Shown piece by piece: positions 46,801 to 64,000 of a stretch of DNA of 64,000 nt. The stretch lies in assembly GCA_905211485.1 (NCBI GenBank), contig CAJMAW010000001.1, positions 254 through 64,253 on the forward strand. Reading direction: 5' to 3'. The translations under genes and the position numbers were made by a program. The notes beneath the pieces were generated by a model that made no database searches, was not told the origin of the DNA, and saw only the letters and a program-made list of their open reading frames with translations. Every line of letters begins with the position of its first letter. Within the stretch, counting starts at the first letter, position 1. The stretch is from an uncultured Lentisphaeria bacterium (GTDB lineage: Bacteria; Verrucomicrobiota; Lentisphaeria; Victivallales; UBA1829).

Positions 46801-47838
46801 TTACAGCCATCCCGGCACGGCATTGAGTCCGTATCTGCGGAGGAAGTCCGCGGCTGTCCTCAAGTCGTTGTCGGAGGGAGGGGTGATTCCCTCCATGAAA
46901 TGCCCGGCGATCCCGAGCGCGGCATATTTGGCCCCTGCCAGCCGATGATAGACAAGAAGCCGGACTCTCCACGGATTCAGACCCCTGAGAAATTCCCCGC
47001 TCTGCCTCAGATCCTTTTCGGAATCGTTGATTCCGGGGATGAGGGGAATGCGGATTTCGATTACGGCTCCTTCACGGGCAAGGAAGAGCAGATTTTCCCG
47101 GATGAGAGCGTTTTCCTGTCCGGTCAGGGCTTCATGGACTTCGGGATCGGGGTGTTTCCAGTCGGCGAGGAAGAGATCCGTATACGGGAGAAGGTCTTCC
47201 AGCGCTCTCCGCGGGGCGAAACAGCTGCTGTCCAGGGCGGTATGGATTCCCTGCGTCCGGCATGCGGAGAAGAATGCCCGGCAGAACTCCGCCTGAAGAA
47301 GCGGTTCGCCTCCGGAAAGAGTCACTCCGCCTCCGGATTCGTCATAAAATTCCCGGTCGCTCAATGCCTCTTCGAGCATTTCGGACACGCTTTTTTCCTT
47401 CCCGTACAGTCGGAGTGCTCCGGAAGGGCATACCTCTTCACATTTCCCGCATGCGGTACAGAGTTTCCGGTGGAATTGGTGGCGGGTAAATGCAGGCGAT
47501 TCCTCATCCCATGCAGACTTCCGTCCTGCGGACCGCTGGGTTTGCCCGAGGAATCTCTGCGTTCCCGGGAGGATCCTATGGGCTCCGGAGGGGCAGACTT
47601 TCTCGCATTCTCCGCAGAGGATGCAGTTCTGTTCATAAAAGGCCATCTGCGCAGTGGGGGAAAAGGTTTCGGGGTTGTGGCACCAGCGGCAGCGGAGAGG
47701 GCAGCCCTTCAGGAAAAACGTGGTCCGGATTCCGGGACCGTCGTGTACGGAAAAGTGGCGGATGTCCGCAAGAACGGCTCTCCTCTCCACCACGGCGGGG
47801 GCGGGGTGAGGGGAGGGACGGCGAAGGGGGAACACCAT
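46801..47838 (-). CDS. Glycyl-radical enzyme activating enzyme (radical SAM, with two auxiliary ferredoxin-type clusters)
   Basis: CPLRCRWCHNPE (CX3CX2C). CILCGECEKVCPSGA and CTACGKCEEVCPSGA. GGVTLSGGEPLL. Start set at ATG 47838, preceded by AAGGAGAAGGAGAAG. The ORF remains open upstream to 48303, so the true start is uncertain. Confidence 0.85.
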   Translation of the reverse strand: MVFPLRRPSPHPAPAVVERRAVLADIRHFSVHDGPGIRTTFFLKGCPLRCRWCHNPETFSPTAQMAFYEQNCILCGECEKVCPSGAHRILPGTQRFLGQTQRSAGRKSAWDEESPAFTRHQFHRKLCTACGKCEEVCPSGALRLYGKEKSVSEMLEEALSDREFYDESGGGVTLSGGEPLLQAEFCRAFFSACRTQGIHTALDSSCFAPRRALEDLLPYTDLFLADWKHPDPEVHEALTGQENALIRENLLFLAREGAVIEIRIPLIPGINDSEKDLRQSGEFLRGLNPWRVRLLVYHRLAGAKYAALGIAGHFMEGITPPSDNDLRTAADFLRRYGLNAVPGWL

Positions 47839-48085
47839 CTTCTCCTTCTCCTTTTCTTTTCCCTTGATTTCCCCTGATTCGTTTTCTTTTTCTTTTTTTC
47901 CGTTTCCGTCTCCATATCCGTTTCCGCGGCTGTTTTCTTTTCCTTCCAGAAAGTCTTTTTTCGCCTCTTTCCCATAGTTTCCGGAAGGGAGGGGGGGAGG
48001 AAGGGAGTCCGGAGGATGAGGAAATTCCCCTCCCGACAGGGGAAGAGAAACGGACGGCGAATCCGTGCAGGACGCTTCCTTTGAT

Positions 48086-50365
48086 TCATTCCCGGATTCT
48101 TGAGGCTCGTTCAATGTAGGCATCCTGCTCCTTTCGCGAGAGATCATTCCAGCGGACGTTCCAGCCGCAGACGCGGACCTGGAGCGATTCATATTTTTCC
48201 GGGTGTTTCTGTGCATCCAAAAGTGTTTCCTGATCGAAGAGGTTGAAATGAAGAGCAATCCCGTTTCTCTTTCTGTAGATTTCAAGGAGTGAGAAAAGAA
48301 CATTCAGTCCATCTTCTCCGGAGACTGTGGCGGGATGCATCATGACATCGAGGGAAAAGTCCCCCGGGAAACGGGAGGAATCGATTTCCGTCACGGATCG
48401 CAGCAGTGCGGCGGTTCCGTTGACGTCTGTCCCCATGACGGGAGAAAGGTTTTTGGAGAGTTCCTCCCCTTTCTTTCTCCCGTCCGGCGTGGCGGAAGTT
48501 TTTTCTCCGAGTGTGATGAACGATCTTGCCGCATGCCCGCTCGCCATCCAGAATCCGCCCCGGCTGTTGGGGCGCAGATTGATTTTGGAACTGAGAAAAT
48601 TTGCCAGCATTTCGGCAAGAAAATCACTTTCCTTGTCTCCGTTTCCGTACTTTGCCGAGTCGTGCCGGATCCGGAGGCGAAGCGCTTCGCGGCCCTCCCA
48701 GTTGCTCCGGAGCGTTTCCGCCATTTCGGAGAGAGAGAGAACTTTTTCCCTGAAAACGAATTTCCGGATCGCCGACAGGGAATCGACCGCGCTTGCGAAA
48801 CCGGAATAAAGCATGAGAGTGTTGTTGTAGAGACAGCCGGTGGAAAAGGCGTCGCGCGCCGTTTCGAGACTGTGTTTGATCGCGGCGCAGAGCACTGCCC
48901 CGGGATTGATCGCCGAAAGATGTTTTTCAAATTCGTTGACCTGTCCGACGGTAATTTCAATCATTTCATTCACGAAATGCAGGTAATTCCGGTAAAAAGA
49001 ATCGAAGTCGCCGATATTTCCGATCTCATCACCCCGGATTCCCGAGTCAATTCCCGTCATCGGATCCCTTCCGTTGTTCAGCAGAAGTTCGATTCCTTTG
49101 GGCAGGTTCAGATAGCAGGGCGCTGTGGCGTTGGAGGCGCCGGCAGCGCCGAATTCATAGCAGCCGCAGACATGGCAGGTACGCGCTTCCTCTTCCGTAT
49201 GCCCGCAGGACATCATCGCGCGTTTGATCCCGTCCTCCGAGACAAAAACCAGACTGCTGTTTCCATGCCGGATCATCTCGAATGCCTTCAGAAGAAAGTC
49301 GCGCGGCGTCCGGGCGGAATATTTCAGCTGGATCTTCGGCGAAGTGATTGAAAGGGAATCGAAGACGTCCAGAATCAGAAAGGAGAGTTCGTTGATTACG
49401 CTTGAAGAGTCTTTCTCCGTTCCCCCCAGATAGAAGGGGTGTCCCCAATAATTATTGATGGAGGCGAACTGAAGCATGAAGCAGCCCAGAAGTCTCCGGA
49501 TCTCCTCTTCCGTGAAGGTTCCGGAACTCAGGTCCCGTTTATAATACGGATATAGAATGCGGTCCAGATTCCCCAGCGAACGCACCTGCATGTGATCGAC
49601 ATGTTCGCCAAAAAGAAAATAAAGAAAGATGAGCAGGAGCGCCTCGTACAGATTTCCCGGTGCGGCGCAGGAAAGGTGACGCAGTGCGGTGGCGAGCCTG
49701 GAGATTCTGCTGCTGCTTTTGTTCCCGTCCGCTTTTCCTCCTCCTCCGCGGCTGGAGAGGTCTTGCTCCTGCCCCGCCCTTTTTTCCGCATAGCGGGCGA
49801 AGCGCAGGAGAGTTTCGAGAATGGCGCTGCAAGTAATTTCGACTGATTCAAAATAGATCTCGGATTCCGGAGTGTTTTTGTTTTCCAGACTCCTTTGGGC
49901 ACGGTATTTCTTTGCCCGTTCGAGCAGGCCTTTGAATCCCAGGCTGAGAATGTCGTCCCAGTCCGGCACGGAGTGATCGAAGTCTTTCCATACGGCATAG
50001 ATTCCGGCGCGGTTGAATTCCGCGATCCTGGAGCTCGTTTCCGGGAGGAGGCGTTCATTGACTTCCGTCTCCCAGCGCCGGAGCAGGGGTGCCGCGGGGC
50101 GTCTGTCCCGGTTCCAGCATCCGAATGCGGGAAAGGGATCCGCCGCGTGGACGCCCGTCTGCATGTTGCGGCAGAGATATTCAAAGACTCTGGCCTTGAG
50201 CAGAGGGTGGGGAAGTTCCTTCAGGGAATCGGCGAGAAGGAGAACATCGTTGCGGAGAGTTTCGTTGTCCCTGCCTGTTTCCGGGTCGAGAAAGCATTCC
50301 GGATTGCGGAACTTGGAAAGCAGGATCTTTTTTTCCTCCGGAGAAATGGGAAATTCGTTCTGCAT
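48086..50365 (-). CDS. Glycyl-radical enzyme, PFL2/eliminase-like, substrate unknown
   Basis: The C-terminal motif LQVRVCGWNVRWNDLSRKEQDAYIERA has the RVxG glycyl-radical pattern. The candidate thiyl loop HVCGCYEFG fits G-C-x-E. 759 aa. Confidence 0.85.
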   Translation of the reverse strand: MQNEFPISPEEKKILLSKFRNPECFLDPETGRDNETLRNDVLLLADSLKELPHPLLKARVFEYLCRNMQTGVHAADPFPAFGCWNRDRRPAAPLLRRWETEVNERLLPETSSRIAEFNRAGIYAVWKDFDHSVPDWDDILSLGFKGLLERAKKYRAQRSLENKNTPESEIYFESVEITCSAILETLLRFARYAEKRAGQEQDLSSRGGGGKADGNKSSSRISRLATALRHLSCAAPGNLYEALLLIFLYFLFGEHVDHMQVRSLGNLDRILYPYYKRDLSSGTFTEEEIRRLLGCFMLQFASINNYWGHPFYLGGTEKDSSSVINELSFLILDVFDSLSITSPKIQLKYSARTPRDFLLKAFEMIRHGNSSLVFVSEDGIKRAMMSCGHTEEEARTCHVCGCYEFGAAGASNATAPCYLNLPKGIELLLNNGRDPMTGIDSGIRGDEIGNIGDFDSFYRNYLHFVNEMIEITVGQVNEFEKHLSAINPGAVLCAAIKHSLETARDAFSTGCLYNNTLMLYSGFASAVDSLSAIRKFVFREKVLSLSEMAETLRSNWEGREALRLRIRHDSAKYGNGDKESDFLAEMLANFLSSKINLRPNSRGGFWMASGHAARSFITLGEKTSATPDGRKKGEELSKNLSPVMGTDVNGTAALLRSVTEIDSSRFPGDFSLDVMMHPATVSGEDGLNVLFSLLEIYRKRNGIALHFNLFDQETLLDAQKHPEKYESLQVRVCGWNVRWNDLSRKEQDAYIERASRIRE

Positions 50366-52845: not shown

Positions 52846-52957
52846 CTGCAGTATTTCCGATGTTTTTCCCCCTTCTCATTTTGTATGCCGCCGCCCCCTG
52901 TGGTGAGTGTTCAGGGCGGCGGCTTGCAGAGAGAACGGGGAGGAAAAAACGACAGGA

Positions 52958-55900
52958 TTATTTGTCTTCCTCCTTGTCGTAAACGGCGCTGTAGTCCTTG
53001 ACGCGGACCGAGGGCTCGGACTTCTTGAAATCCAGCAGATCGAGTTTGTTTCTGTTGACTTCGATTCCGATGCCGCGGAGTTTGATCGGCATGTCGATCT
53101 TCTTGTTTCCGCCTTCGGAGACCCACTGCTCGGAGACTGGTCCGGGGCTGTGGTCGTTGAAGAGATCGGTATCGCGGAGAGGATGCGCCACGAAGTTCCA
53201 TCCGTCGAAGTTGACGGAGAGATTTCCTGGCCAGTCAAGGATGTCGCATCCCCATCCGGAGGTGCTGAGAGTCTTCCAGACTTCGCCTTCCGCATCTTCG
53301 ATTTCAAAGAGGATCCGTCCCCAGCTGGAGTTTCCTTTCACCCAGACTCCGACCGCGGCGGGATTGCCTTCGACGGGAACGGGTTCCTTGAACATCAGGT
53401 GGGTGTATTCCGAGATGTATTTCCCGGTGTCCTTGTTTTTGGAGAGGTCCAGAGTCGCCTCGATGCAGTCTCCTTTTTCCTCGTCCTTGACCGCCTTCAC
53501 GATGAAATCGGAGGGTTTGGTGATCGGGAGGAATTTGGTGTGCGTGCTTTCATAGCTCTTGTCCGGAGCGGCGGTGATGCCGTCGAGCGAGCTGAGGGGG
53601 GCGACGACTTTGGATTTTGCGGCGCGAGCCTCGTCCTTCGGGAACGCTCTGTCAAGAATCGAGACCGATTTCACTCCCTTGTCCGAGAGCAGATAGACCG
53701 GAGACGTTCCCGCATCCACGGTGATCTCATTTCCGGACTTCCTGCTTTCCGCCCCATACATCGTGAATTCCCTGACGGACGCTTTCCCGTTGAATTCAAC
53801 CTTGAATTTCACCGTCCCGCGGGAAGCCCAGAGCGCGATGGCCTTCTGGCCGTCTGCGCGATTGAATTCCAGAGCATAGACCGTGGTGGATCCGGTCGGG
53901 ATCTGACGGTTGAATTTGACGCGGTCAAACACATTGGTCAGCGCCGCATACGCTACATACGCGCGTTTCGGATACACATACGGCCCGCGGGTGATGATTC
54001 CGCTTCCGCCCCAGAGTCCGTTGTAGTATCCGCTGGAACAGTCGAAGAAGATCCCGGGGCTGATCAGGAAGAAATCATTGGCCAGGGAGATCAGCACGTC
54101 GCGCATATACCATTCCGCCTGCTGCTGTTCCCCCATGTCGCGTTCGCAGCGGTAGGTGAATTCCCAGGATCCGTTCGCGGGGATTTTCCGCTTGCCGAGC
54201 TTTTCGGCAATGTCCTTGGAAATCATCATGCCCTGGAAACCGACTTCCTGCAGCTTTTCCGGGACAATGACCTGCGAAGGCGTTTCGATCCCGATGTAGT
54301 CATAGTACTGCGGATCGGCTCCTCCGCGCAGCGGGAGTGTGGTAGCTCCGATGGAAGCGCTGCTGTTCCCGATCTGGATTTTCAGTTTCGGGAAATGCTT
54401 CCGGATGATTTTGCCGGCGGCGTTGATGTACTTTCCGAGGTTTTCCGCACGCTCTTTGAGCGCCGGATCGGAAGGCACGTCCATGTTGAGCATTTCTTCC
54501 GGAATACCGTAGCCGGGAGCGGTTTCATGCCAGATGAGGATGTGATCGGATTTCGGGCGTTTGTCCAGATTTTCCTGAATCGTCATCCTGGCATATTCCT
54601 CGCCGGAGACGGTGATCCTCTTTTTCGGATCCTTCGGATCGCGGATCTGTTTTTCCTTGAACTCGCCCGTTGCGGGGTCGAGATCTCTGATTCCGAGGGG
54701 GAACATCAGATTCAGCGTGGTGGTGACGTTGAAACGGTCCATTTCCTCCTGGGAAAGTTTCGCAGTTGCCCAGCTGGCCTTGCGGATTCCGGCTTTCTGG
54801 AACAGGGGACCGGCGACTTCAAAATCGCCGAGACTGCCGTGTGCGTCGAACCACCATGTCGCAAAGGGGGAGGTGTATTTATCCGCTTTGCGTTCGTCTT
54901 TCGCAAGAATGGCGAAGCGCGCCGGATGTGTCAGAATCACGTTGCCTTTTTCATCGGCAAGAGTCATGTTCAGGTCGAAGTACCCGACTTTGTCTTTCGG
55001 AAGGGAGATTTTGAGGGTTTTCTCCTCTCCGGCTTTGGCGAACTGCCAGTCAGCGGAAGAGCCCGCGACTTTTTTCACGTCAGCGTCAAACGCTTCCCAG
55101 ACCAGTTTCCCTTTGGCCGGACGCAGAGACTTCAGCACTACCGATGTCTCCGGATTTTCCGCCTGGGTGAAGACGTTCCCCGGCTGTTTCTGCTCGATAT
55201 CCATCAGAATCGGCGCCTGCTCCAGCGTGATTCCGAAGATCTGCACCGCACTTGTGGAATACGGCGTGGGTTTCCCCGTGCGGTCGATCTGTTCAAAGTT
55301 CTCCCACGGTTTCCCGAAGAAGTCCAGGTTGAGATGCTTTTGTCTTGCGGGAAGATCCAGCACGCTTCCCGTCCCGAGTTCAATCTCGGCAAGATAGAGC
55401 GGTGTTTCCACGCCTTTGATCTTCACGCTTCCGACCTGTTTCATGTTGGCGGGCAGGGCTTCTCCCTTGCGCGGGAAGACGGTGTGCGTATCGGCCATCA
55501 TGTTCTGGCCGCTTCCATTCGGGTAGATGTAGTATCCGATGCGAGTCGTCAGGAACGGATCCTTTGCGGGGTCGGGATCCACGGCGCAGAGGATCCAGGC
55601 CTTGGTATAGTCAGCCGGAGGAAGCAGGTAATGCACTTCGCTCAGGAGTCCGTCGAAGGGCGAACGTCCCAGATATTCCTCGACTTCCAGCGCCCATTCC
55701 CCCATTCCCTGGCGTGCAATGCCGACATCGGAGGAATGTTCCGGGGATGCCACGAACATCGGAATCCCGTTTATATTCGAAAAACCCTCTTTCAGACTGC
55801 TTTGCGCATCAACGAATGCCTTGGCTTTCGGCCGGGCGGTGATGTCAAGCGGATAGTATTTCGGATCGGCTTTCAGGGCCGGGGAATCCGAACGGGCGTC

Positions 55901-57085
55901 CTTGTAGGAGGCACCCTTCTTGAAGAAGAACTCTGCACTCTGCAAGGCTGCGCCCTTGTCGTTCAGGATTCCCGCGTAAGAGCCGTCCAGGAAGAGCCGG
56001 GTATTCTGACCGTCCCGGCGGAATTCGATGCGGAGGGGATGTTCCGAGGCTTTCGGCAGTTTCTCCCAGTCGCGGATGATGTCCACATATTCCGGAACGA
56101 CGCTGTAGCTGCTGTGATAGCGCCGCAGAAGGGGGCGGACATAAACGTTCTGAAGAAGATTCTTATCTCCTTTGACACTCAGGAAAGCATCAGGCAGATC
56201 GATTTTCGTTCCTTTCGCCTGTTCGCCGACAGGGGCCATCAGGGAATGCTTCCGGATCCCTTCTGTGTTGATGGAAAGTTCCGTCTCCGTCCCGTCGCTC
56301 CACTTGAGAATTCCTTTGACCGCATCCTTTTCCGTTCCCGTGATCACGGTGATTCCTCCGGCTTTTTCAGGACGGATGGTCACGGGAGTGCTTTCCGATG
56401 CGGCTGTCTGGAATCCTTTTTTGTCCGTCAGACTTTTCAGGGAGGCTGTCAGATCCAACACGCTGCTGTCCTTCAGTGCCCCGGGGCTGCGGAGAAGGAA
56501 ATGCGATACCGCAAACTGTTTCTCCGGTTCCGCAAAAATATTGAAGCCCTTCAGCTGGAAGGAACCCAATGCGGCAGTGAAGAGTTTTTTATACTGTCTG
56601 TCCGCAGTCACATAGACATCCAGTTTGCCTCCGGAGAATTTGAGAGCCGCCTTTTCCCATTGTCTGGTCCGATGCGGCACCTGGAAGGCCGTTTTGGCTG
56701 TGTCGAGCGACACTTCCTTCGGGGTGAAGACAACGACTTTATCCTTGCCGTCCGCTCCCTTCAGATATACTTTGAATTCTCCCTTGTCGTTATTGAAGCG
56801 GAAATCGAAAAGCAGATCGAAGGCGGAAAGGGTTTTCCCGGCAGCTCCTTGAAAATCCTTGAAGATGAATCCGGGTTCCTTTGCATTGACATTCAGTTCC
56901 GCATTGTCCGCCCAGATCGGATCGTTGCCGACCGAGAATCCTTTCCCCTCCGGACACAACGGCGCCTGTTCCGTGTAGTTCCGGAAGTTCTCCCGGAAAT
57001 ACTCGGCGGGTTCCGCTGCTGAGAGGTACGGAATGACAGGGAGTGAAAGTCCTGCAAGCAGAATCGCATTGCAAATCTTCGGCAT
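52958..57085 (-). CDS. Very large secreted protein (1375 aa), putative multi-domain glycan-active protein
   Basis: Signal peptide MPKICNAILLAGLSLPVIPYLSAAEP. The N-terminal region is beta-sandwich-like. The central region has alternating beta/alpha character (IQIGNSSASIG...YIGIETPSQ...WEFTYRCERDMG). The C-terminal region is beta-rich. No family recognised with certainty. Confidence 0.8.
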   Translation of the reverse strand: MPKICNAILLAGLSLPVIPYLSAAEPAEYFRENFRNYTEQAPLCPEGKGFSVGNDPIWADNAELNVNAKEPGFIFKDFQGAAGKTLSAFDLLFDFRFNNDKGEFKVYLKGADGKDKVVVFTPKEVSLDTAKTAFQVPHRTRQWEKAALKFSGGKLDVYVTADRQYKKLFTAALGSFQLKGFNIFAEPEKQFAVSHFLLRSPGALKDSSVLDLTASLKSLTDKKGFQTAASESTPVTIRPEKAGGITVITGTEKDAVKGILKWSDGTETELSINTEGIRKHSLMAPVGEQAKGTKIDLPDAFLSVKGDKNLLQNVYVRPLLRRYHSSYSVVPEYVDIIRDWEKLPKASEHPLRIEFRRDGQNTRLFLDGSYAGILNDKGAALQSAEFFFKKGASYKDARSDSPALKADPKYYPLDITARPKAKAFVDAQSSLKEGFSNINGIPMFVASPEHSSDVGIARQGMGEWALEVEEYLGRSPFDGLLSEVHYLLPPADYTKAWILCAVDPDPAKDPFLTTRIGYYIYPNGSGQNMMADTHTVFPRKGEALPANMKQVGSVKIKGVETPLYLAEIELGTGSVLDLPARQKHLNLDFFGKPWENFEQIDRTGKPTPYSTSAVQIFGITLEQAPILMDIEQKQPGNVFTQAENPETSVVLKSLRPAKGKLVWEAFDADVKKVAGSSADWQFAKAGEEKTLKISLPKDKVGYFDLNMTLADEKGNVILTHPARFAILAKDERKADKYTSPFATWWFDAHGSLGDFEVAGPLFQKAGIRKASWATAKLSQEEMDRFNVTTTLNLMFPLGIRDLDPATGEFKEKQIRDPKDPKKRITVSGEEYARMTIQENLDKRPKSDHILIWHETAPGYGIPEEMLNMDVPSDPALKERAENLGKYINAAGKIIRKHFPKLKIQIGNSSASIGATTLPLRGGADPQYYDYIGIETPSQVIVPEKLQEVGFQGMMISKDIAEKLGKRKIPANGSWEFTYRCERDMGEQQQAEWYMRDVLISLANDFFLISPGIFFDCSSGYYNGLWGGSGIITRGPYVYPKRAYVAYAALTNVFDRVKFNRQIPTGSTTVYALEFNRADGQKAIALWASRGTVKFKVEFNGKASVREFTMYGAESRKSGNEITVDAGTSPVYLLSDKGVKSVSILDRAFPKDEARAAKSKVVAPLSSLDGITAAPDKSYESTHTKFLPITKPSDFIVKAVKDEEKGDCIEATLDLSKNKDTGKYISEYTHLMFKEPVPVEGNPAAVGVWVKGNSSWGRILFEIEDAEGEVWKTLSTSGWGCDILDWPGNLSVNFDGWNFVAHPLRDTDLFNDHSPGPVSEQWVSEGGNKKIDMPIKLRGIGIEVNRNKLDLLDFKKSEPSVRVKDYSAVYDKEEDK

Positions 57086-58692: not shown

Positions 58693-59000
58693 CTGGCTGA
58701 ATGTTCTCGGCGTATTGCTCAAATATTTGAGGGATGGACTGTTTCTGTTGTTCAATGGATTCTTTCCCGCCATTTTTTAGAGAAATTGGATGCTTTCCCA
58801 CGCTTCCCGGTAAGATAGCGCATTTTTCCATTTTCGCAACCCCCGGCATCCGGTTTTGAAAATAAAAAAGACGTTCCCGGAAATCTCCGAGAACGTCTTA
58901 CCCGCCATTCCTTTTTCTCTCCGTCCGGCTTTTTCCCCATGGGGGGAGAAAAGATTCGGGGGAAAATCAGGAAGGCTGCTTTTTTCACCTGGGGGAAGGC

Positions 59001-59168
59001 TCAGCCTCTGCGGCGCTGTGAACGGCGCTTTTTTTCGCTGGGCTTTTCGAAGTGCCTCCGGTTGCGGAGTTCCTTCAGGGTTCCTTCCTTGTCGAGCTTT
59101 TTCTTCAGCCGGCGCAGGGCGCGGTCGATCGGCTCGCCTTTTTTCAGACGGACTTCCGTTGCTTCCAT
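59001..59168 (-). CDS. rpsU: 30S ribosomal protein S21
   Basis: Below the ORF-track length cutoff. My translation is [55 protein letters not shown], 55 aa, matching the S21 pattern (ALRRFKK...EKPSE..KR). Confidence 0.9.
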
Positions 59169-59324: not shown

Positions 59325-62207
59325 TTATTCGTTGGCGAAACCGGCTTCGTCCGCGAGCATTGCGCGGAGCTTGCTTAGAGCCTGGTTCTGGATCTGCCGG
59401 ACACGTTCCCGGGTGCGTCCGATTTCCTGGCTGACTTCCTCCAGAGTTCGGGAACGGGCTCCGTCGAGTCCGAAACGCATTTTCAGGATCATCCGTTCGC
59501 GTTCGTCCAGATCGCGCAGAAGATCCATCAGGCGGCCGACGGATTCCACATCACTGAGAATCCGGTCCGGTGTCATGGCTCCGCGGTCGGGAATAATATC
59601 CTGGAATTCTCCGTCTTCCCCCTGCTGGATGGGGTCGTGCAGAGAGAAGGTCCGCAGATCTGCAAGACGAAGACCCGCCACGGTTCTTTCACTGTAGTCC
59701 AGGTTTTCTGCAATTTCGGCGTCGGTCGGTTCGCGCCCGAGTTTTTCCGTGAGCTTCATCCGGACGGATTTGATTTTGTTGATCTTCCCCGCCGACTGCA
59801 CAGGAATGCGGATGGTGCGGCTCTGATTCGCCAGCGCACGGCGCATGGACTGTTTGATCCACCAGGCCGCATACGAACTGAATTTCGCTCCTTTCGCGGG
59901 ATCGAATTTCTCCACCGCACGCATCAGACCGATATTCCCTTCGGAAATCAAATCCAGAAGCGGAAGCCCCAGGCCCTTGAAGTCGTGCGCAATTTTGACG
60001 ACAAGACGGAGATTCGCCTTGATCAGCGTTGCTCTCGCCTTGTCGTGGGCAATGTTGTCCTCGCCGTGGATCATCGCAGCAAGGTCCACTTCCTGATCCT
60101 TGGTCACCAGATCGATCTGGCCGATGTCGTGCATATACACTTTCATCGTGTCGTTTTTGGTCACCGAACCGTGTTTCGCGGCGACCTTCGCATTTTTCCG
60201 GTCCAGAGAAAGATCTTTTTCAGCGTTCTGAAGATCTAGCGAATTCAGGTCAATGTCGATATCCTCGATCACGGGTTCTTCCTCGGTCCGGGGAGAATCA
60301 ATCTGCTTTTCCACTTCAATGTCGACAAGCAGTTTCTCAGGCACTTTGACTTTTTTCGGAGGTCTGGGCGGCGGAACTGAAGAGGGCATTCCCCCCTCCT
60401 TCTCAGCCGTCTTCGCGGGCTTGTCCTTCCCGTCTTTCGCTTCCGCCGGAAGCGATGAAGATGAGGGCGCTGCTGTTTCGGCAGAAGCTGCGGAAGCCGT
60501 CTTCCCTGTCTTTTTTGCCGGGGCGGGAGCGGCATCGGCTTCTTTGCCGCCTGCGGATGATGCGGACGGAACAGACTTCTCTTTTTTCGTTTCCTGCTTC
60601 TGTTCCCGGACAGGCAAATTTTCCTGCGAGGACTTTCCCTCTTTTTTCAGAGAAGCCTGATCTGCCTGGGACTTCTTCGCCGTCTGCTTTGCAGGCGCGG
60701 AGCCCTGAACGGGAGACGAGGAAGCTTCCGGAACGTCTTTCCCCCCGTCCGACGATGCCGGAGAACTGCTGCTTCCCCCTGCCTTTTTCTTTGTCCTGAG
60801 CTCCGCAGCTCCGGCTTCCTGCCGATTCTGAGCGGCAGCAACAGAAGGAAGAAGGCCTTCCATCTGTTTCTTCCCGGACTTCTTCGCGTTTTTCGGCGAC
60901 ACGGCGGACCCGTCGGATTTTTTCTGGTTCTGAAGAGTTTCTTCCGGATCTTTCGAGACCGTCTTTCCCGCGTTTCCGTTTTTTTGAACGGCGGCGCGGG
61001 GAGAAGCGGTTTCCAGATCTTTCCCCGCTTTCTTTCCCGTATCCTTCCCGCTTTTCTTCGAGCGGGAAGAATCTTCGGCTCCGGAAGAGGAAGAGTCCTT
61101 CGACTCTGTTTCCGGACTTGCCTGAACAGGCGGGACAGCGGCCTTGCCCTTCTGCGTTCTCCCGGCTTTCAGATCCGGAACGGCAGACGCCCCGTCAGAC
61201 TTTTTCTGGTTCTGAAGAGTTCCTTCCGGGTCTTTTGAGACCGCCGTTCCCGTGTTTCCAGCTTTCTTCTGAACGGCGGACTGGAGAGAGAAGACGGGCT
61301 TCTGATCTTTTTCCGCTTTCTTCTTCGTTTCTTTTTTTTCAGTCTTGCCGGTTTCGGAAGGAGTCTGGAGCGGAGCCGCCGCAGGACTCCCCTTCTGTTT
61401 TTTCCCAGTTTTCGGAGCCGGGGGGGCAGCCGACACGACGGAAGCGGAGTGCGACGCTGCGGCAGGAGAAACAGATTTTTCCGGAACGCTCCTGCTCTTC
61501 TTCTTGCCGTCATTCAGATTCCGGGCCGCAGAGAGAGTGGAGGTATCCTTTTTTTTCTCTGTCTTTTTTTTCTCTGTCTTTTCCGGTTTTTCTTTGCCTT
61601 TTTCCGTTTTTCCTGTCCCGGGGAGAGCGGCAGAAGTTTTCTGCATCTTTTTTTGTGCCGGGGAGGAGGATTTCACTTCATTTTCCGGTTCCGGCGATTT
61701 TCTTTTCTGTGCATTCTGGGCAGCCGGGGGTACTTTGACTTTGACTTTCGCCTCCGCCGCGGCTTTTTTTCCGGCTGCGGGGACCGATGCGGCTGCTTCC
61801 TGTTTCCTTCCTGTGCCTTTCCCGGTGGATTTTTCAGATGCGGAGGAAACGCTTGCGGTATTTTCTCTGCTGTTTTCCTTCTTCGTTTTCTCAGCGGTTT
61901 TCGTTTTTTCAGCGGGGACTGCTGTCTTGGAAACGGCCTTGCTCTTTTTCGCCGCTGCAGGCTGTTTTTCTACGGAACTCTGCACGGCGGGACGTTTTGA
62001 GGATGCTGTTTTTTCTGTTTTTTTCTGTTCAGAAGTCATGGAAGCGGATTTTTTCACAGGAGCCTCCTGTGTCTTTTTTGAGGGCGCGGCAGGGGGCACA
62101 AGCGGAGTTTTTTTCACAGCGGTCTGCGAAAGTTTTTTTTCTGACACAGTCGGTTTTTCTTTAGAGGAAACAACCTTCTTCTTCTGGGAATCCGAAGCAG
62201 ATTTCAT
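59325..62207 (-). CDS. rpoD: RNA polymerase sigma-70 family factor (RpoD-like) with a ~620-aa basic low-complexity N-terminal extension
   Basis: The C-terminal 273 aa carries regions 1.2 to 4.2 (VYMHDIGQIDLV; ANLRLVVKIAHDF; LDLISEGNIGLMRAVEKFD; YAAWWIKQSMRRAL; TIRIPV; TLEEVSQEIGRTRERVRQIQNQALSKLR). The preceding ~620 aa is K/A/S/P/T/E/G-rich. Confidence 0.9.
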   Translation of the reverse strand: MKSASDSQKKKVVSSKEKPTVSEKKLSQTAVKKTPLVPPAAPSKKTQEAPVKKSASMTSEQKKTEKTASSKRPAVQSSVEKQPAAAKKSKAVSKTAVPAEKTKTAEKTKKENSRENTASVSSASEKSTGKGTGRKQEAAASVPAAGKKAAAEAKVKVKVPPAAQNAQKRKSPEPENEVKSSSPAQKKMQKTSAALPGTGKTEKGKEKPEKTEKKKTEKKKDTSTLSAARNLNDGKKKSRSVPEKSVSPAAASHSASVVSAAPPAPKTGKKQKGSPAAAPLQTPSETGKTEKKETKKKAEKDQKPVFSLQSAVQKKAGNTGTAVSKDPEGTLQNQKKSDGASAVPDLKAGRTQKGKAAVPPVQASPETESKDSSSSGAEDSSRSKKSGKDTGKKAGKDLETASPRAAVQKNGNAGKTVSKDPEETLQNQKKSDGSAVSPKNAKKSGKKQMEGLLPSVAAAQNRQEAGAAELRTKKKAGGSSSSPASSDGGKDVPEASSSPVQGSAPAKQTAKKSQADQASLKKEGKSSQENLPVREQKQETKKEKSVPSASSAGGKEADAAPAPAKKTGKTASAASAETAAPSSSSLPAEAKDGKDKPAKTAEKEGGMPSSVPPPRPPKKVKVPEKLLVDIEVEKQIDSPRTEEEPVIEDIDIDLNSLDLQNAEKDLSLDRKNAKVAAKHGSVTKNDTMKVYMHDIGQIDLVTKDQEVDLAAMIHGEDNIAHDKARATLIKANLRLVVKIAHDFKGLGLPLLDLISEGNIGLMRAVEKFDPAKGAKFSSYAAWWIKQSMRRALANQSRTIRIPVQSAGKINKIKSVRMKLTEKLGREPTDAEIAENLDYSERTVAGLRLADLRTFSLHDPIQQGEDGEFQDIIPDRGAMTPDRILSDVESVGRLMDLLRDLDERERMILKMRFGLDGARSRTLEEVSQEIGRTRERVRQIQNQALSKLRAMLADEAGFANE
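60909..61279 (-). repeat. Two ~85-bp near-identical segments (60909..60993 and 61192..61279) inside the sigma-factor tail
   Basis: Read directly as ccgtcggattttttctggttctgaagagtttcttccgg... versus ccgtcagactttttctggttctgaagagttccttccgg.... They encode ..TVSKDPEETLQNQKKSDGSAVSP.. and ..AVSKDPEGTLQNQKKSDGASAVP.. Confidence 0.75.
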
Positions 62208-62409
62208 CAGCTGCTTTTTCTCCTTGCACTATTTCCTGTTGCGCAATTGCCTTTTTATGATGGACTGTTATATTGTTGTCCGTTTCTTTTCTACGGCGGA
62301 GAAGCATCTTTTTTTCCCCCCCCCCCTCTTTTTTTCCGGGGGGAATCCGCACGGGAAAGAAGCAGAAAAACAACAGGGACAGTTCGCACATATAAAACCA
62401 TATTATATA

Positions 62410-64000
62410 ATGGGAAACAGGAAAAGTCAAGTGGAGAGGAAGAAATATCTCTGGAAAAAGCATCTGCTTTCCTGGCTTGAGCGTCTCCCGCACGGAGAAG
62501 GGAAGGCGGAATTTGTTGATGAATCTCTTCTGGCCTTTCCGCTTTTTTCTCTGCTGATGCATGCGGATCGTCCGCTTCTTGTGGTTTCTCCGGCGCTTTC
62601 CCTTGCCGAACGTGTGAAGGAGGATCTGACTCTGCTTTCGGAAGTGCTCTCCACCAATTTCCGCATCGGCGGTCTTCCGGAGGGGTCGACCCGTTCCCAG
62701 GCGCTTGCAGGAAGCGACGCTCCGCGTGCGGAAGTCCTCTATCGGACACTGACAGATCCTCCTGCACTGACTTCTGTTTCCCTTTCCGCTCTTCTGGCTC
62801 CGGCTCCCGCTCCCAGGAAAATGAGGGAGAGCGGTCTGCTACTCCGGCCAGGAATGGAAATCTCCATCCCGGCTCTCGCTGAAAAACTTCTTGAAATGGA
62901 TTATGATGACGAACTGGAAGTGGTGCGTCCGGGCGAATTTGCGCGCCGGGGCGGAATTGTGGATCTCTTTTCCCCTTCCGAAAAACTGCCCGCCCGAATC
63001 GAATTCTGGGGGGATGTGATTGATTCCATCCGCCTCTTCCGGCCGGACACACAGATTTCCTGTGCTCCGGCGGAGGAATACAGGGTGATTCTGCGTTCGG
63101 GGTCCGCTCCGGCGGGGGAGGATCCGTCTTCTGATTCCGCGGATTTTGCGGATTATTTTGAGGATCCTCTCCTTGTTGTGATTCATCCTGCCGAGTGCAT
63201 GAGGCATCTGGAACAGTTCGGGACAGCGGAAAACCTTGCCCGCTGGGAAACTCTCCTGAAGCGCGCCGGGCTCCGGAAAATCTTTTTTCCGGATGCCGCA
63301 GAAGCTGCCGCACTTGAAAAAGATCTTTCCGCTCCCGCCTGTTATCCCGCCTTCGCGCATATTGTGAAGTCGCTGCCCGAGGGGGCGGAGGAATCCTGTT
63401 CCGAACTGGCCAGACAGCTTGGGGCGGCGCAGATCCGTTCCTGGTGCCGGGAAGGCTGTCACGTTGTCCTGCTGGGCCGCAGCACTGCCGATGCCGCCTA
63501 CATCCGGAGCTGGCTGGAGGAGGCCGGGCTGCTTCATCCGCAGGAAGAAGACGGAGTCCTTCAGATAGATCACTGCCCTTTTCCGCGCGGCGTTTTCCTT
63601 CCGGAAGAGAATCTGGCCGTCCTGACGGAACAGGAACTGTTTTCCCTTCCCGGGAAGATGAGAAGTTCCACGGTTTCCAGGAGCAGAGCGGAGGACCTTC
63701 CGCCGTCCGCCCGCGGCACCGACAGCGACATGTTCACGACCATGGGGGAACTCGAGGAGGGCGGATACGCCGTCCACATCAATTACGGGATCTGCCTCTA
63801 CCGGGGGCTGAAGACACTCTCCTCCTCCGACGGCGGGACGGAGGAGGTGCTGGAACTGGAATTCGCCGACGACACCATTGTGAATGTCCCCGTCTGGCAG
63901 GCCGACTGCGTTTCCAGATACATCGGCTCCAAGAAAACCGCTCCCCCTCTCAGCCGGATCACGACTTCCCGCTGGAACCGTACCAAATCCGAAGCCGCTT
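62410..64000 (+). CDS. mfd: Transcription-repair coupling factor (N-terminal part; runs off the right edge)
   Basis: Not in the ORF track because there is no stop in the window. My translation from ATG 62410 gives ...VVRPGEFARRGGIVDLFSPSEKLPARIEFWGDVIDSIRLFRPDTQ (UvrB-homology module) and later LEEGGYAVHINYGICLYRGL...VNVPVWQADCVSRYIG (CarD/TRCF RNAP-interacting domain). Confidence 0.88.
   Translation, partial: MGNRKSQVERKKYLWKKHLLSWLERLPHGEGKAEFVDESLLAFPLFSLLMHADRPLLVVSPALSLAERVKEDLTLLSEVLSTNFRIGGLPEGSTRSQALAGSDAPRAEVLYRTLTDPPALTSVSLSALLAPAPAPRKMRESGLLLRPGMEISIPALAEKLLEMDYDDELEVVRPGEFARRGGIVDLFSPSEKLPARIEFWGDVIDSIRLFRPDTQISCAPAEEYRVILRSGSAPAGEDPSSDSADFADYFEDPLLVVIHPAECMRHLEQFGTAENLARWETLLKRAGLRKIFFPDAAEAAALEKDLSAPACYPAFAHIVKSLPEGAEESCSELARQLGAAQIRSWCREGCHVVLLGRSTADAAYIRSWLEEAGLLHPQEEDGVLQIDHCPFPRGVFLPEENLAVLTEQELFSLPGKMRSSTVSRSRAEDLPPSARGTDSDMFTTMGELEEGGYAVHINYGICLYRGLKTLSSSDGGTEEVLELEFADDTIVNVPVWQADCVSRYIGSKKTAPPLSRITTSRWNRTKSEAA

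Follow-up and report, generated by a model that had tools for sequence, protein, structure and literature searches.

The DNA analysed here, a 64,000-nucleotide stretch of contig CAJMAW010000001.1 from an uncultured human-gut bacterium of the Victivallales, class Lentisphaeria (hereafter the window), carries on its minus strand a gene for a sigma-70 family protein of 960 residues, more than two thirds of which precede the conserved sigma regions. We propose that this is the housekeeping sigma factor in a form without a folded region 1.1, in which a long lysine-rich N-terminal tail would act as a polyanion-binding arm, an acidic patch would replace region 1.1, and residues 301–620 would serve as a spacer. 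We put the probability of this reading at about one half. The gene and its parts are arranged as follows.

59325–62207, minus strand: sigma-70 family gene, 960 residues, ATG start; complete (open reading frame list and Pfam)
59328–60152, minus strand: sigma core, regions 1.2–4.2 (residues 686–960, 275 residues); Pfam, with SigA structures as the best PDB matches
60153–60197, minus strand: short basic linker, conserved (residues 671–685, ..KNAKVAAKHGSVTKN), predicted helix into region 1.2; alignment and AlphaFold2
60198–60347, minus strand: acidic patch (residues 621–670, net charge −10), predicted disordered; candidate stand-in for region 1.1
60348–61307, minus strand: C-terminal half of the tail (residues 301–620), near-neutral and S/A/G/P/Q/E/K-rich; net +21, +0.07 per residue
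61308–62207, minus strand: N-terminal half of the tail (residues 1–300), more basic; K 23%, net +45, +0.15 per residue
61173–61334, minus strand: repeat copy 1 (residues 292–345), best-conserved 69 nt at 61191–61259
60891–61046, minus strand: repeat copy 2 (residues 388–439), best-conserved 69 nt at 60909–60977
61548–61582, minus strand: 15-bp tandem repeat encoding (KTEKK)n, an in-frame length hot spot at about residues 210–214

The first-pass annotation of this DNA had confined the sigma regions to the last 273 residues of the open reading frame (ORF). Their restriction to the C-terminal end stands, with the core slightly longer than first given, at 275 residues. Pfam places region 1.2 at residues 686–714 (27 bits), region 2 at 728–798 (69 bits), region 3 at 808–881 (68 bits) and region 4 at 896–949 (56 bits), and all four scores exceed their cut-offs. 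The Pfam model for region 1.1 (Sigma70_r1_1, PF03979) has no match anywhere in the 960-residue protein and the AlphaFold2 model is free of structure before residue 669, so that a folded acidic region 1.1 was not found. Some accepted primary sigma factors, for example those of Bacteroidetes, also lack region 1.1, and its absence is therefore not disqualifying for membership of group 1.

Several lines of evidence point to the housekeeping role. The best PDB matches are the SigA proteins of C. difficile (7l7b) and B. subtilis (7ckq) and then HrdB, at 211–220 bits, with RpoS (189–194 bits) and RpoH (101 bits) lower, and the stretch TRERVRQIQ in region 4.2 agrees with the SigA sequences in the PDB alignment. 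Orthologues with the signature peptides DTMKVYM and WWIKQSM occur in more than 570 species genomes. These orthologues are named 'RNA polymerase primary sigma factor' by the Joint Genome Institute (JGI) and only 'sigma-70 family' by the NCBI pipeline. The ribosomal protein gene rpsU lies 39–146 nt 3' of the sigma gene in 75 of 80 Lentisphaerota loci, a pairing that recalls the rpsU-dnaG-rpoD operon. Among six strains of the window species the polymorphic codons of the core comprise 55 synonymous and 0 non-synonymous changes, and the core is thus under extreme purifying selection. Taken together, these sequence comparisons lead us to infer that the gene encodes a group-1-like housekeeping sigma factor.

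One metagenome-assembled genome (MAG), JAZNVL01, holds two different copies of the sigma gene, 72% and 87% identical to the query (loci L006 and L007), which represent either a paralogue or mixed binning. Both copies end at contig ends inside the tail, which indicates that repetitive tails break assemblies.

The composition of the tail is as the first-pass annotation described it: eight residue types make up 83% of residues 1–620 (K 19.2%, A 15.0%, S 14.4%, P 8.4%, E 7.6%, T 6.8%, G 6.3% and Q 5.3%). The same stretch contains no I, Y, W or C at all and has a net charge of +66, or +0.11 per residue. Serine and threonine together account for 21% of the tail and acidic residues for 11%. The charged residues (32%) are well mixed, as in a polyampholyte, and their segregation does not differ from that in shuffled sequences (z = −1.5). 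In an AlphaFold2 run on a 93-sequence alignment, residues 1 to about 660 have no secondary structure and a predicted local distance difference test (pLDDT) score below 50, the first helix spans residues 669–678, and the sigma core is modelled confidently. The disorder previously suspected is thus borne out by prediction, and the stretch before region 1.2 is indeed acidic.

The tail is largely irregular in sequence. The two near-identical repeats reported earlier are real and in frame, with 88% identity over 69 nt and peptides that share 17 of 23 residues; their spacing is 282 bp (94 codons) and not 283 bp. They lie within a longer duplication, residues 292–345 against 388–439, which is recognizable over 132 nt at 80% identity and whose protein alignment scores 156 compared to 56 ± 8 for shuffled sequences. 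Apart from the 15-bp KTEKK unit, only a few weak short tandem repeats are present. A motif, VSKDPExTLQNQKKSDG, is repeated in the tail and is species-specific. When residues 1–685 were compared alone with Pfam at E ≤ 10 no family was matched, HC2 (PF07382) included. The sole PDB match of the tail, to a phycobilisome linker (E = 0.009), was rejected as compositional. A tail-only search of a collection of 5.8 billion proteins returned only the sigma factor of the same species, which argues that the tail is not a shared or mobile module.

With an ORF of this kind the question arises whether the long reading frame is genuine or results from misassembly or from a spurious 5' extension added to a sigma factor of some 300–350 residues. 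An artefact of either sort is very improbable. Over the 1860 nt of the tail only the sense frame is open, each of the other five having 4–10 stops, and in 2000 nucleotide shuffles of the region no stop-free sequence arose. The codons used for K, E, Q and P agree with those in the other genes of the window. The same ORF recurs in over 20 assemblies made independently, and on four other assemblies the distal ATG was also the start chosen by independent gene callers. Twenty-two protein variants from the same species range from 829 to 966 residues, one outlier of 761 residues (P0050) excepted. Once two N-terminally truncated gene calls and one C-terminal extension are set aside, their internal length differences are all in frame and fall at four hot spots, with indels of 2, 5, 94 and 96 residues: a (VK) unit at about residue 154, the KTEKK unit at about residue 210, a 94-residue deletion exactly between the repeats, and a 96-residue deletion. 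Recombination between the repeat copies accounts for the alleles of 861–870 residues that lack 94 or 96 residues.

The genomic context argues in the same direction. The divergent gene mfd starts 100–250 bp 5' of the distal ATG in most of the 80 loci, with tails from 67 to 685 residues, and in the loci compared the sigma ORF always fills the space up to mfd, whatever the length of its tail. With this synteny throughout the phylum, neither a further gene nor a long untranslated region would fit between the two. A fusion or fission origin, in which a separate lysine-rich gene would lie 5' of the short-tailed orthologues, was likewise rejected, mfd being directly upstream in all of them. What favours an artefact is that NCBI annotates some orthologues from internal starts, as with P0123 at 301 residues and P0166 at 409 residues, and so drops the lysine-rich tail; on the contig of the former (locus L034) the open frame is 608 residues. 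The first-pass annotation had reasoned that a tail absent or frameshifted in close relatives would betray a spurious extension, and in those relatives it is in frame and the trait is conserved. The comparative data effectively refute the artefact reading, and on the sequence evidence we conclude that translation begins at the distal ATG (62207) and includes the tail. Indels that are exclusively in frame prove translation and not function, because the essential core lies downstream. Since pipelines sometimes cut these genes to 301 or 409 residues, and since the thresholds of the RpoD models are failed, the principal sigma factor of these gut bacteria is easily mis-annotated.

Translation of the tail does not by itself dispose of an internal start, which had also been raised at the outset, and in the window species a strong candidate for one exists at the junction of tail and core.

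60387–60400, minus strand: internal AGGAGG (60395–60400), 5 nt, then ATG (60387–60389, Met607); candidate secondary start for a 354-residue tail-less sigma

Internal initiation is thus half excluded. The peptide spanning the junction is ..TAEKEGGMPSSVPPPR.., and the Shine–Dalgarno (SD) sequence and ATG are present both in the window and in a second locus of the species, L001, which comes from a MAG of an uncultured Victivallales (CAKUDG01; its isolate name suggests a Nepali stool metagenome) and is 97–98% identical to the window. On this basis the gene might give two isoforms, the 960-residue protein and a 354-residue product comprising the acidic patch and the core, with the short form possibly the main one and the long form regulatory. 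In length the short product would come close to the shortest orthologues (342–347 residues); of the window's seven AGGAGG-N4-9-ATG sites, two or three mark the start of a sizeable ORF; and a strain-mosaic boundary described below falls at residue 606. We nevertheless think the two-isoform arrangement decidedly unlikely: of 57 loci scanned, the other 56 have no comparable SD and ATG at the tail/core junction, which means that the site is not a conserved design and is maybe a by-product of K-E-G-G codons, and the tail-coding region contains no promoter-like site.

Comparison across the phylum shows the tail to be a trait of Lentisphaerota of which the window species is one extreme. The orthologues of the 66 other species have a median of 280 residues before region 1.2 (interquartile range 212–342, range 67–512). 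The orthologue of the cultured Victivallis vadensis is about 502 residues long in all. The window species has the longest, with 685 residues including the acidic patch and linker. None is longer among the best 120 matches in the 5.8-billion-protein collection (mostly 500–630 residues in length) or among the 50%-identity representatives, in which the close relatives have at most 803 residues; the first impression of a tail of unusual size therefore holds against these orthologues and the database matches listed. The orthologous tails contain 10–35% K and are net positive in 66 of 68 cases. An acidic patch like that of the window precedes the linker in 48 of 71 orthologues, indicating a common architecture of basic tail, acidic patch and region 1.2. 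Within this architecture individual tails differ in their regularity. That of locus L003 consists of regular AKP-type repeats, and that of P0083 has a sub-threshold match to Pfam HC2 (34.5 bits; cut-off 40). The clearest exception to the rule of a basic tail is the complete genome of Lentisphaerae bacterium WC36 (locus L030, CP085689.1), in which the 148 residues before region 1.2 are strongly acidic, with a net charge of −26 and 10% K.

Long disordered extensions before region 1.2 also occur on primary sigma factors outside Lentisphaerota. The extension of mycobacterial SigA has a basic K/A/T/P-rich part followed by an acidic part, and the window tail is alike in this. The SigA proteins of Mycobacterium tuberculosis and M. 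smegmatis resemble the window sigma in being primary sigma factors with a long disordered extension, although theirs is 163–225 residues long as against 685, belongs to another phylum and shows no sequence similarity. With 685 residues before region 1.2 and a pLDDT below 50 to about residue 660, the window sigma carries an extension of the type seen in actinobacterial SigA and HrdB. As the resemblance is one of composition and architecture without homology, it is most likely convergent. In M. tuberculosis SigA the disordered N-terminus (207–225 residues) is required for full function, is phosphorylated and is unseen in structures (PMC10011835).

A second group of comparable sequences comprises the lysine-rich low-complexity segments of DNA-handling proteins (HrdB, RpoD, TopA, HupS and HupB), principal sigma factors included. 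The lysine repeats of HrdB are located between regions 1.1 and 1.2. Repeats of the HrdB and TopA type are short, regular (A/T/P)KK units covering tens to about 100 residues, whereas the window tail is 620 residues long, irregular, serine-rich and less basic, and is not accompanied by a region 1.1. In Streptomyces TopA lysine repeats contribute to DNA binding, processivity and the stability of the DNA complex; they have been noted on HupS, Streptomyces HrdB and B. pertussis RpoD, and a link to DNA binding has been drawn for the two sigma factors as well as for HU homologues (PMC5714199). In view of the work on the M. tuberculosis extension and of these observations on HrdB and RpoD, the earlier statement that no functional study of such tails is known was too strong.

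The first-pass annotation had also compared the tail with histone H1 and AKP-repeat nucleoid proteins. Like the C-terminal domain of histone H1, Hc1 and Hc2 of Chlamydia, and AlgP, it is disordered and rich in K/A/P/S/T, and to that extent the comparison is weakly upheld. H1-like tails contain about 30–40% K, and the window tail, at 19% and +0.11 per residue, has neither the high K content nor the short, regular A/P/K repeats of the H1/Hc2/AKP class, features that some orthologues, such as that of L003, do possess. In addition, it lacks an HC2 match at E = 10, and it is fused to a sigma factor and is not a free nucleoid protein. The acidic patch finds its closest parallel in region 1.1 of E. 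coli sigma-70, likewise an acidic segment just before region 1.2, and is a candidate DNA mimic or autoinhibitor. It differs in having no match to Sigma70_r1_1 and in being predicted to be disordered and not a helical domain.

Lysine-rich N-terminal tails of 150–400 residues are also found on sigma factors from other lineages (P0006, P0013, P0018, P0020, P0026, P0027, P0029, P0030 and P0034), which like the window orthologues are called primary by JGI. These proteins retain region 1.1 (PF03979) after the tail, and their tails are shorter and more regular than that of the window sigma. Lysine-tailed primary sigmas of this sort are widespread; our literature searches brought up no description of them.

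From these comparisons a working model can be drawn for the window sigma. The lysine-rich tail, mainly its residues 1–300, would be a non-specific arm for DNA or other polyanions, comparable to the lysine tails of HU/HupS/HupB and actinobacterial TopA and to histone H1. With such an arm, both free sigma factor and holoenzyme would stay on the nucleoid DNA, and further non-specific contacts would be made near promoters; tethering of this kind to DNA or the nucleoid is plausible. The acidic patch at residues 621–670 would stand in for region 1.1 as a DNA mimic or autoinhibitor and may in addition fold back onto the lysine-rich arm, and the near-neutral residues 301–620 would be mainly a flexible spacer.

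A number of observations weigh against this model. What points to DNA binding by the tail is solely its composition, and the tail matches no Pfam family or solved structure. It is less basic than the tails of the orthologues (K 19%, +0.11 per residue), its C-terminal half being almost neutral. Some Victivallaceae orthologues have only 67–72 residues before region 1.2, so that a long tail is dispensable in some lineages. With regard to the housekeeping assignment, the NCBIfam models for RpoD, RpoS and SigA score 190–260 bits, below their cut-offs of 354–1020; the RpoS and RpoD models score about equally, and the lineage is divergent. The search for a second sigma-70 paralogue covered the 64-kb window, where none was found, and the material compared consisted of this window and loci of 5–15 kb. 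The preservation of the reading frame in the tail is forced by the downstream core and is not in itself proof of tail function. Finally, the polymorphic codons of the tail comprise 21 non-synonymous and 3 synonymous changes compared to a neutral expectation of about 18:6. This excess is not significantly above neutral, and we accordingly make no claim of positive selection.

The last of these observations leads to the most serious of the rival explanations, that the tail is neutral low-complexity sequence, at most an inert spacer, which slippage and segmental duplication would have built up at an N-terminus that tolerates them and which would be held in frame only by the essential core downstream. 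We regard this as a real possibility, though one that falls well short of even odds. It would account for the near-neutral ratio of polymorphisms, for the frequent length polymorphism within the species, and for the tenfold variation in length across the phylum with almost no tail in some lineages. It is also consistent with the lack of any homologue of the tail sequence outside the species and with the relaxed codon bias of the tail, whose G+C content at third codon positions (GC3) is 0.54 compared to 0.63 in reference genes. Against neutrality stand the retention of a net-positive, lysine-rich composition in 66 of 68 species despite complete turnover of the sequence, and the repeated origin of like tails on unrelated primary sigma factors and other DNA-binding proteins. 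That 200–600 codons without use should persist throughout the phylum in an essential, highly expressed gene would likewise be unexpected, because bacterial genomes are usually considered to be deletion-biased. The tail, then, keeps its basic composition although its sequence changes at about the neutral rate: composition and charge are conserved and residue identity is not, the usual pattern for disordered regions. In-frame duplication and slippage lengthen and shorten the tail.

The tail need not be mainly an arm for DNA. It might be mainly regulatory or act as a scaffold, through Ser/Thr phosphorylation, lysine acetylation, an influence on proteolytic stability, a platform for protein, RNA or polyphosphate, or the formation of condensates. 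The 21% of serine and threonine and 19% of lysine in a disordered context fit such a role, as does the well-mixed polyampholyte character (32% charged residues), and in M. tuberculosis SigA phosphorylation of the disordered N-terminus has functional consequences (PMC10011835). Nevertheless, no conserved short linear motif was found in the tail, the sole repeated motif (VSKDPExTLQNQKKSDG) being restricted to the species; the turnover of the sequence is too fast for the binding of a specific partner; and the window shows no sign of a dedicated kinase or partner. We consider a mainly regulatory or scaffolding tail unlikely.

Returning to the polyanion-binding arm that we favour, it can be extended to a bolder and unlikely proposal, that the housekeeping sigma factor of Lentisphaerota is itself nucleoid-associated. 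An H1-like arm in place of region 1.1 would load sigma or holoenzyme on bulk DNA or into a condensate, and the length of the tail would be an evolvable dial on global transcription, in the window species maybe also switchable through a tail-less isoform from Met607. Length alleles of the kind required segregate within the species, at 861–870 and 953–966 residues.

Region 1.1 and the N-terminus of housekeeping sigma factors govern the avoidance of DNA by free sigma and the loading of the holoenzyme at promoters. To our knowledge, almost all mechanistic understanding of this part of the protein comes from E. coli, Thermus, Bacillus and mycobacteria. In Lentisphaerota, a barely studied phylum, the sigma factor has no recognizable region 1.1 and carries in its stead a fast-evolving, disordered, polycationic arm and an acidic patch. 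The natural series of lengths, from 67 to 685 residues and with different alleles in one species, offers material for the study of promoter search, nucleoid association and sigma competition. Because Mycobacterium SigA, Streptomyces HrdB and Bordetella RpoD are known to have shorter basic N-terminal extensions, the window sigma is an extreme variant of a kind already described, the principal sigma with a lineage-specific disordered basic extension, and not a new class. What makes it extreme is a tail more than twice the length of the core and about three times that of the mycobacterial extension, the absence of region 1.1, the within-species polymorphism in length, and its occurrence in a phylum whose transcription machinery is not known to have been studied. 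A full-text search of the literature found no paper on Lentisphaerota sigma tails.

Tail and core have different histories in the window strain. When the window is compared with L001, blocks of about 0–1% divergence alternate with blocks of 5–10%. Nucleotide differences private to the window relative to five other strains number 3 in codons 1–600 and 55 in codons 606–960, which indicates that the two parts of the gene have different genealogies. The core of the window strain is about 5–10% diverged at synonymous sites from the other strains (L001 and L081–L084), and the tail is about 99.5% identical. The divergent block begins at 60391, at the tail/core junction, and relative to L001 continues through rpsU into lptF/G, to about 58400. 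We read this mosaic as the product of homologous recombination ending where homology between the lineages ends; the alternative is a strain-chimeric metagenome assembly.

The surroundings of the sigma gene contain the following features.

62413–64000, plus strand: mfd (UvrB-interaction and CarD/TRCF-RID domains), divergent from the sigma gene; runs past the window end
62402–62430, minus strand: promoter-like TTGACT-17-TATAAT, 11/12 matches, 5' of the distal start; overlaps the divergent mfd start and is identical in L001
62208–62401, minus strand: putative 5' leader of about 190 nt; kept in L001 apart from a G-run
59001–59168, minus strand: rpsU (ribosomal protein S21), 55 residues; PF01165, E = 2e-18; 156 nt 3' of the sigma stop
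58868–58899, minus strand: terminator-like hairpin, 14-bp stem and T-run, 3' of rpsU

The rpsU gene is probably co-transcribed with the sigma gene; its stretch appears intergenic when the ORF cut-off is set at 60 residues. Beyond rpsU and the hairpin the next gene is lptF/G, and the order mfd, sigma, S21, LptF/G recurs in independent gene calls on four other assemblies. The divergent arrangement of mfd and the sigma gene is kept in most of the 80 Lentisphaerota loci. In the leader, the G-run (62316–62326, minus strand) has 11 G in the window and 8 G in L001, a difference that could be a sequencing or assembly artefact or reflect a variable tract. A 13-codon upstream ORF in the leader was rejected, as it has no ATG in L001.

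An Rfam scan of the window returned three tRNAs and nothing else. Elsewhere in the window, a gene at 52958–57085 (minus strand) encodes a 1375-residue protein with a signal-peptide-like N-terminus and no Pfam domain. The 1371-residue ORF antisense to it (52907–57022, plus strand) is a shadow ORF as judged by codon-position G+C. A glycyl-radical enzyme with PFL-like and Gly_radical domains adjoins a radical-SAM activase (46801–48303 and 48086–50365, both minus strand). Among the other proteins of the 64-kb window none has a lysine-rich tail, the nearest approach being a short K/E patch in this activase, where a K/E/G-rich low-complexity patch forms part of an N-terminal extension of about 180 residues.

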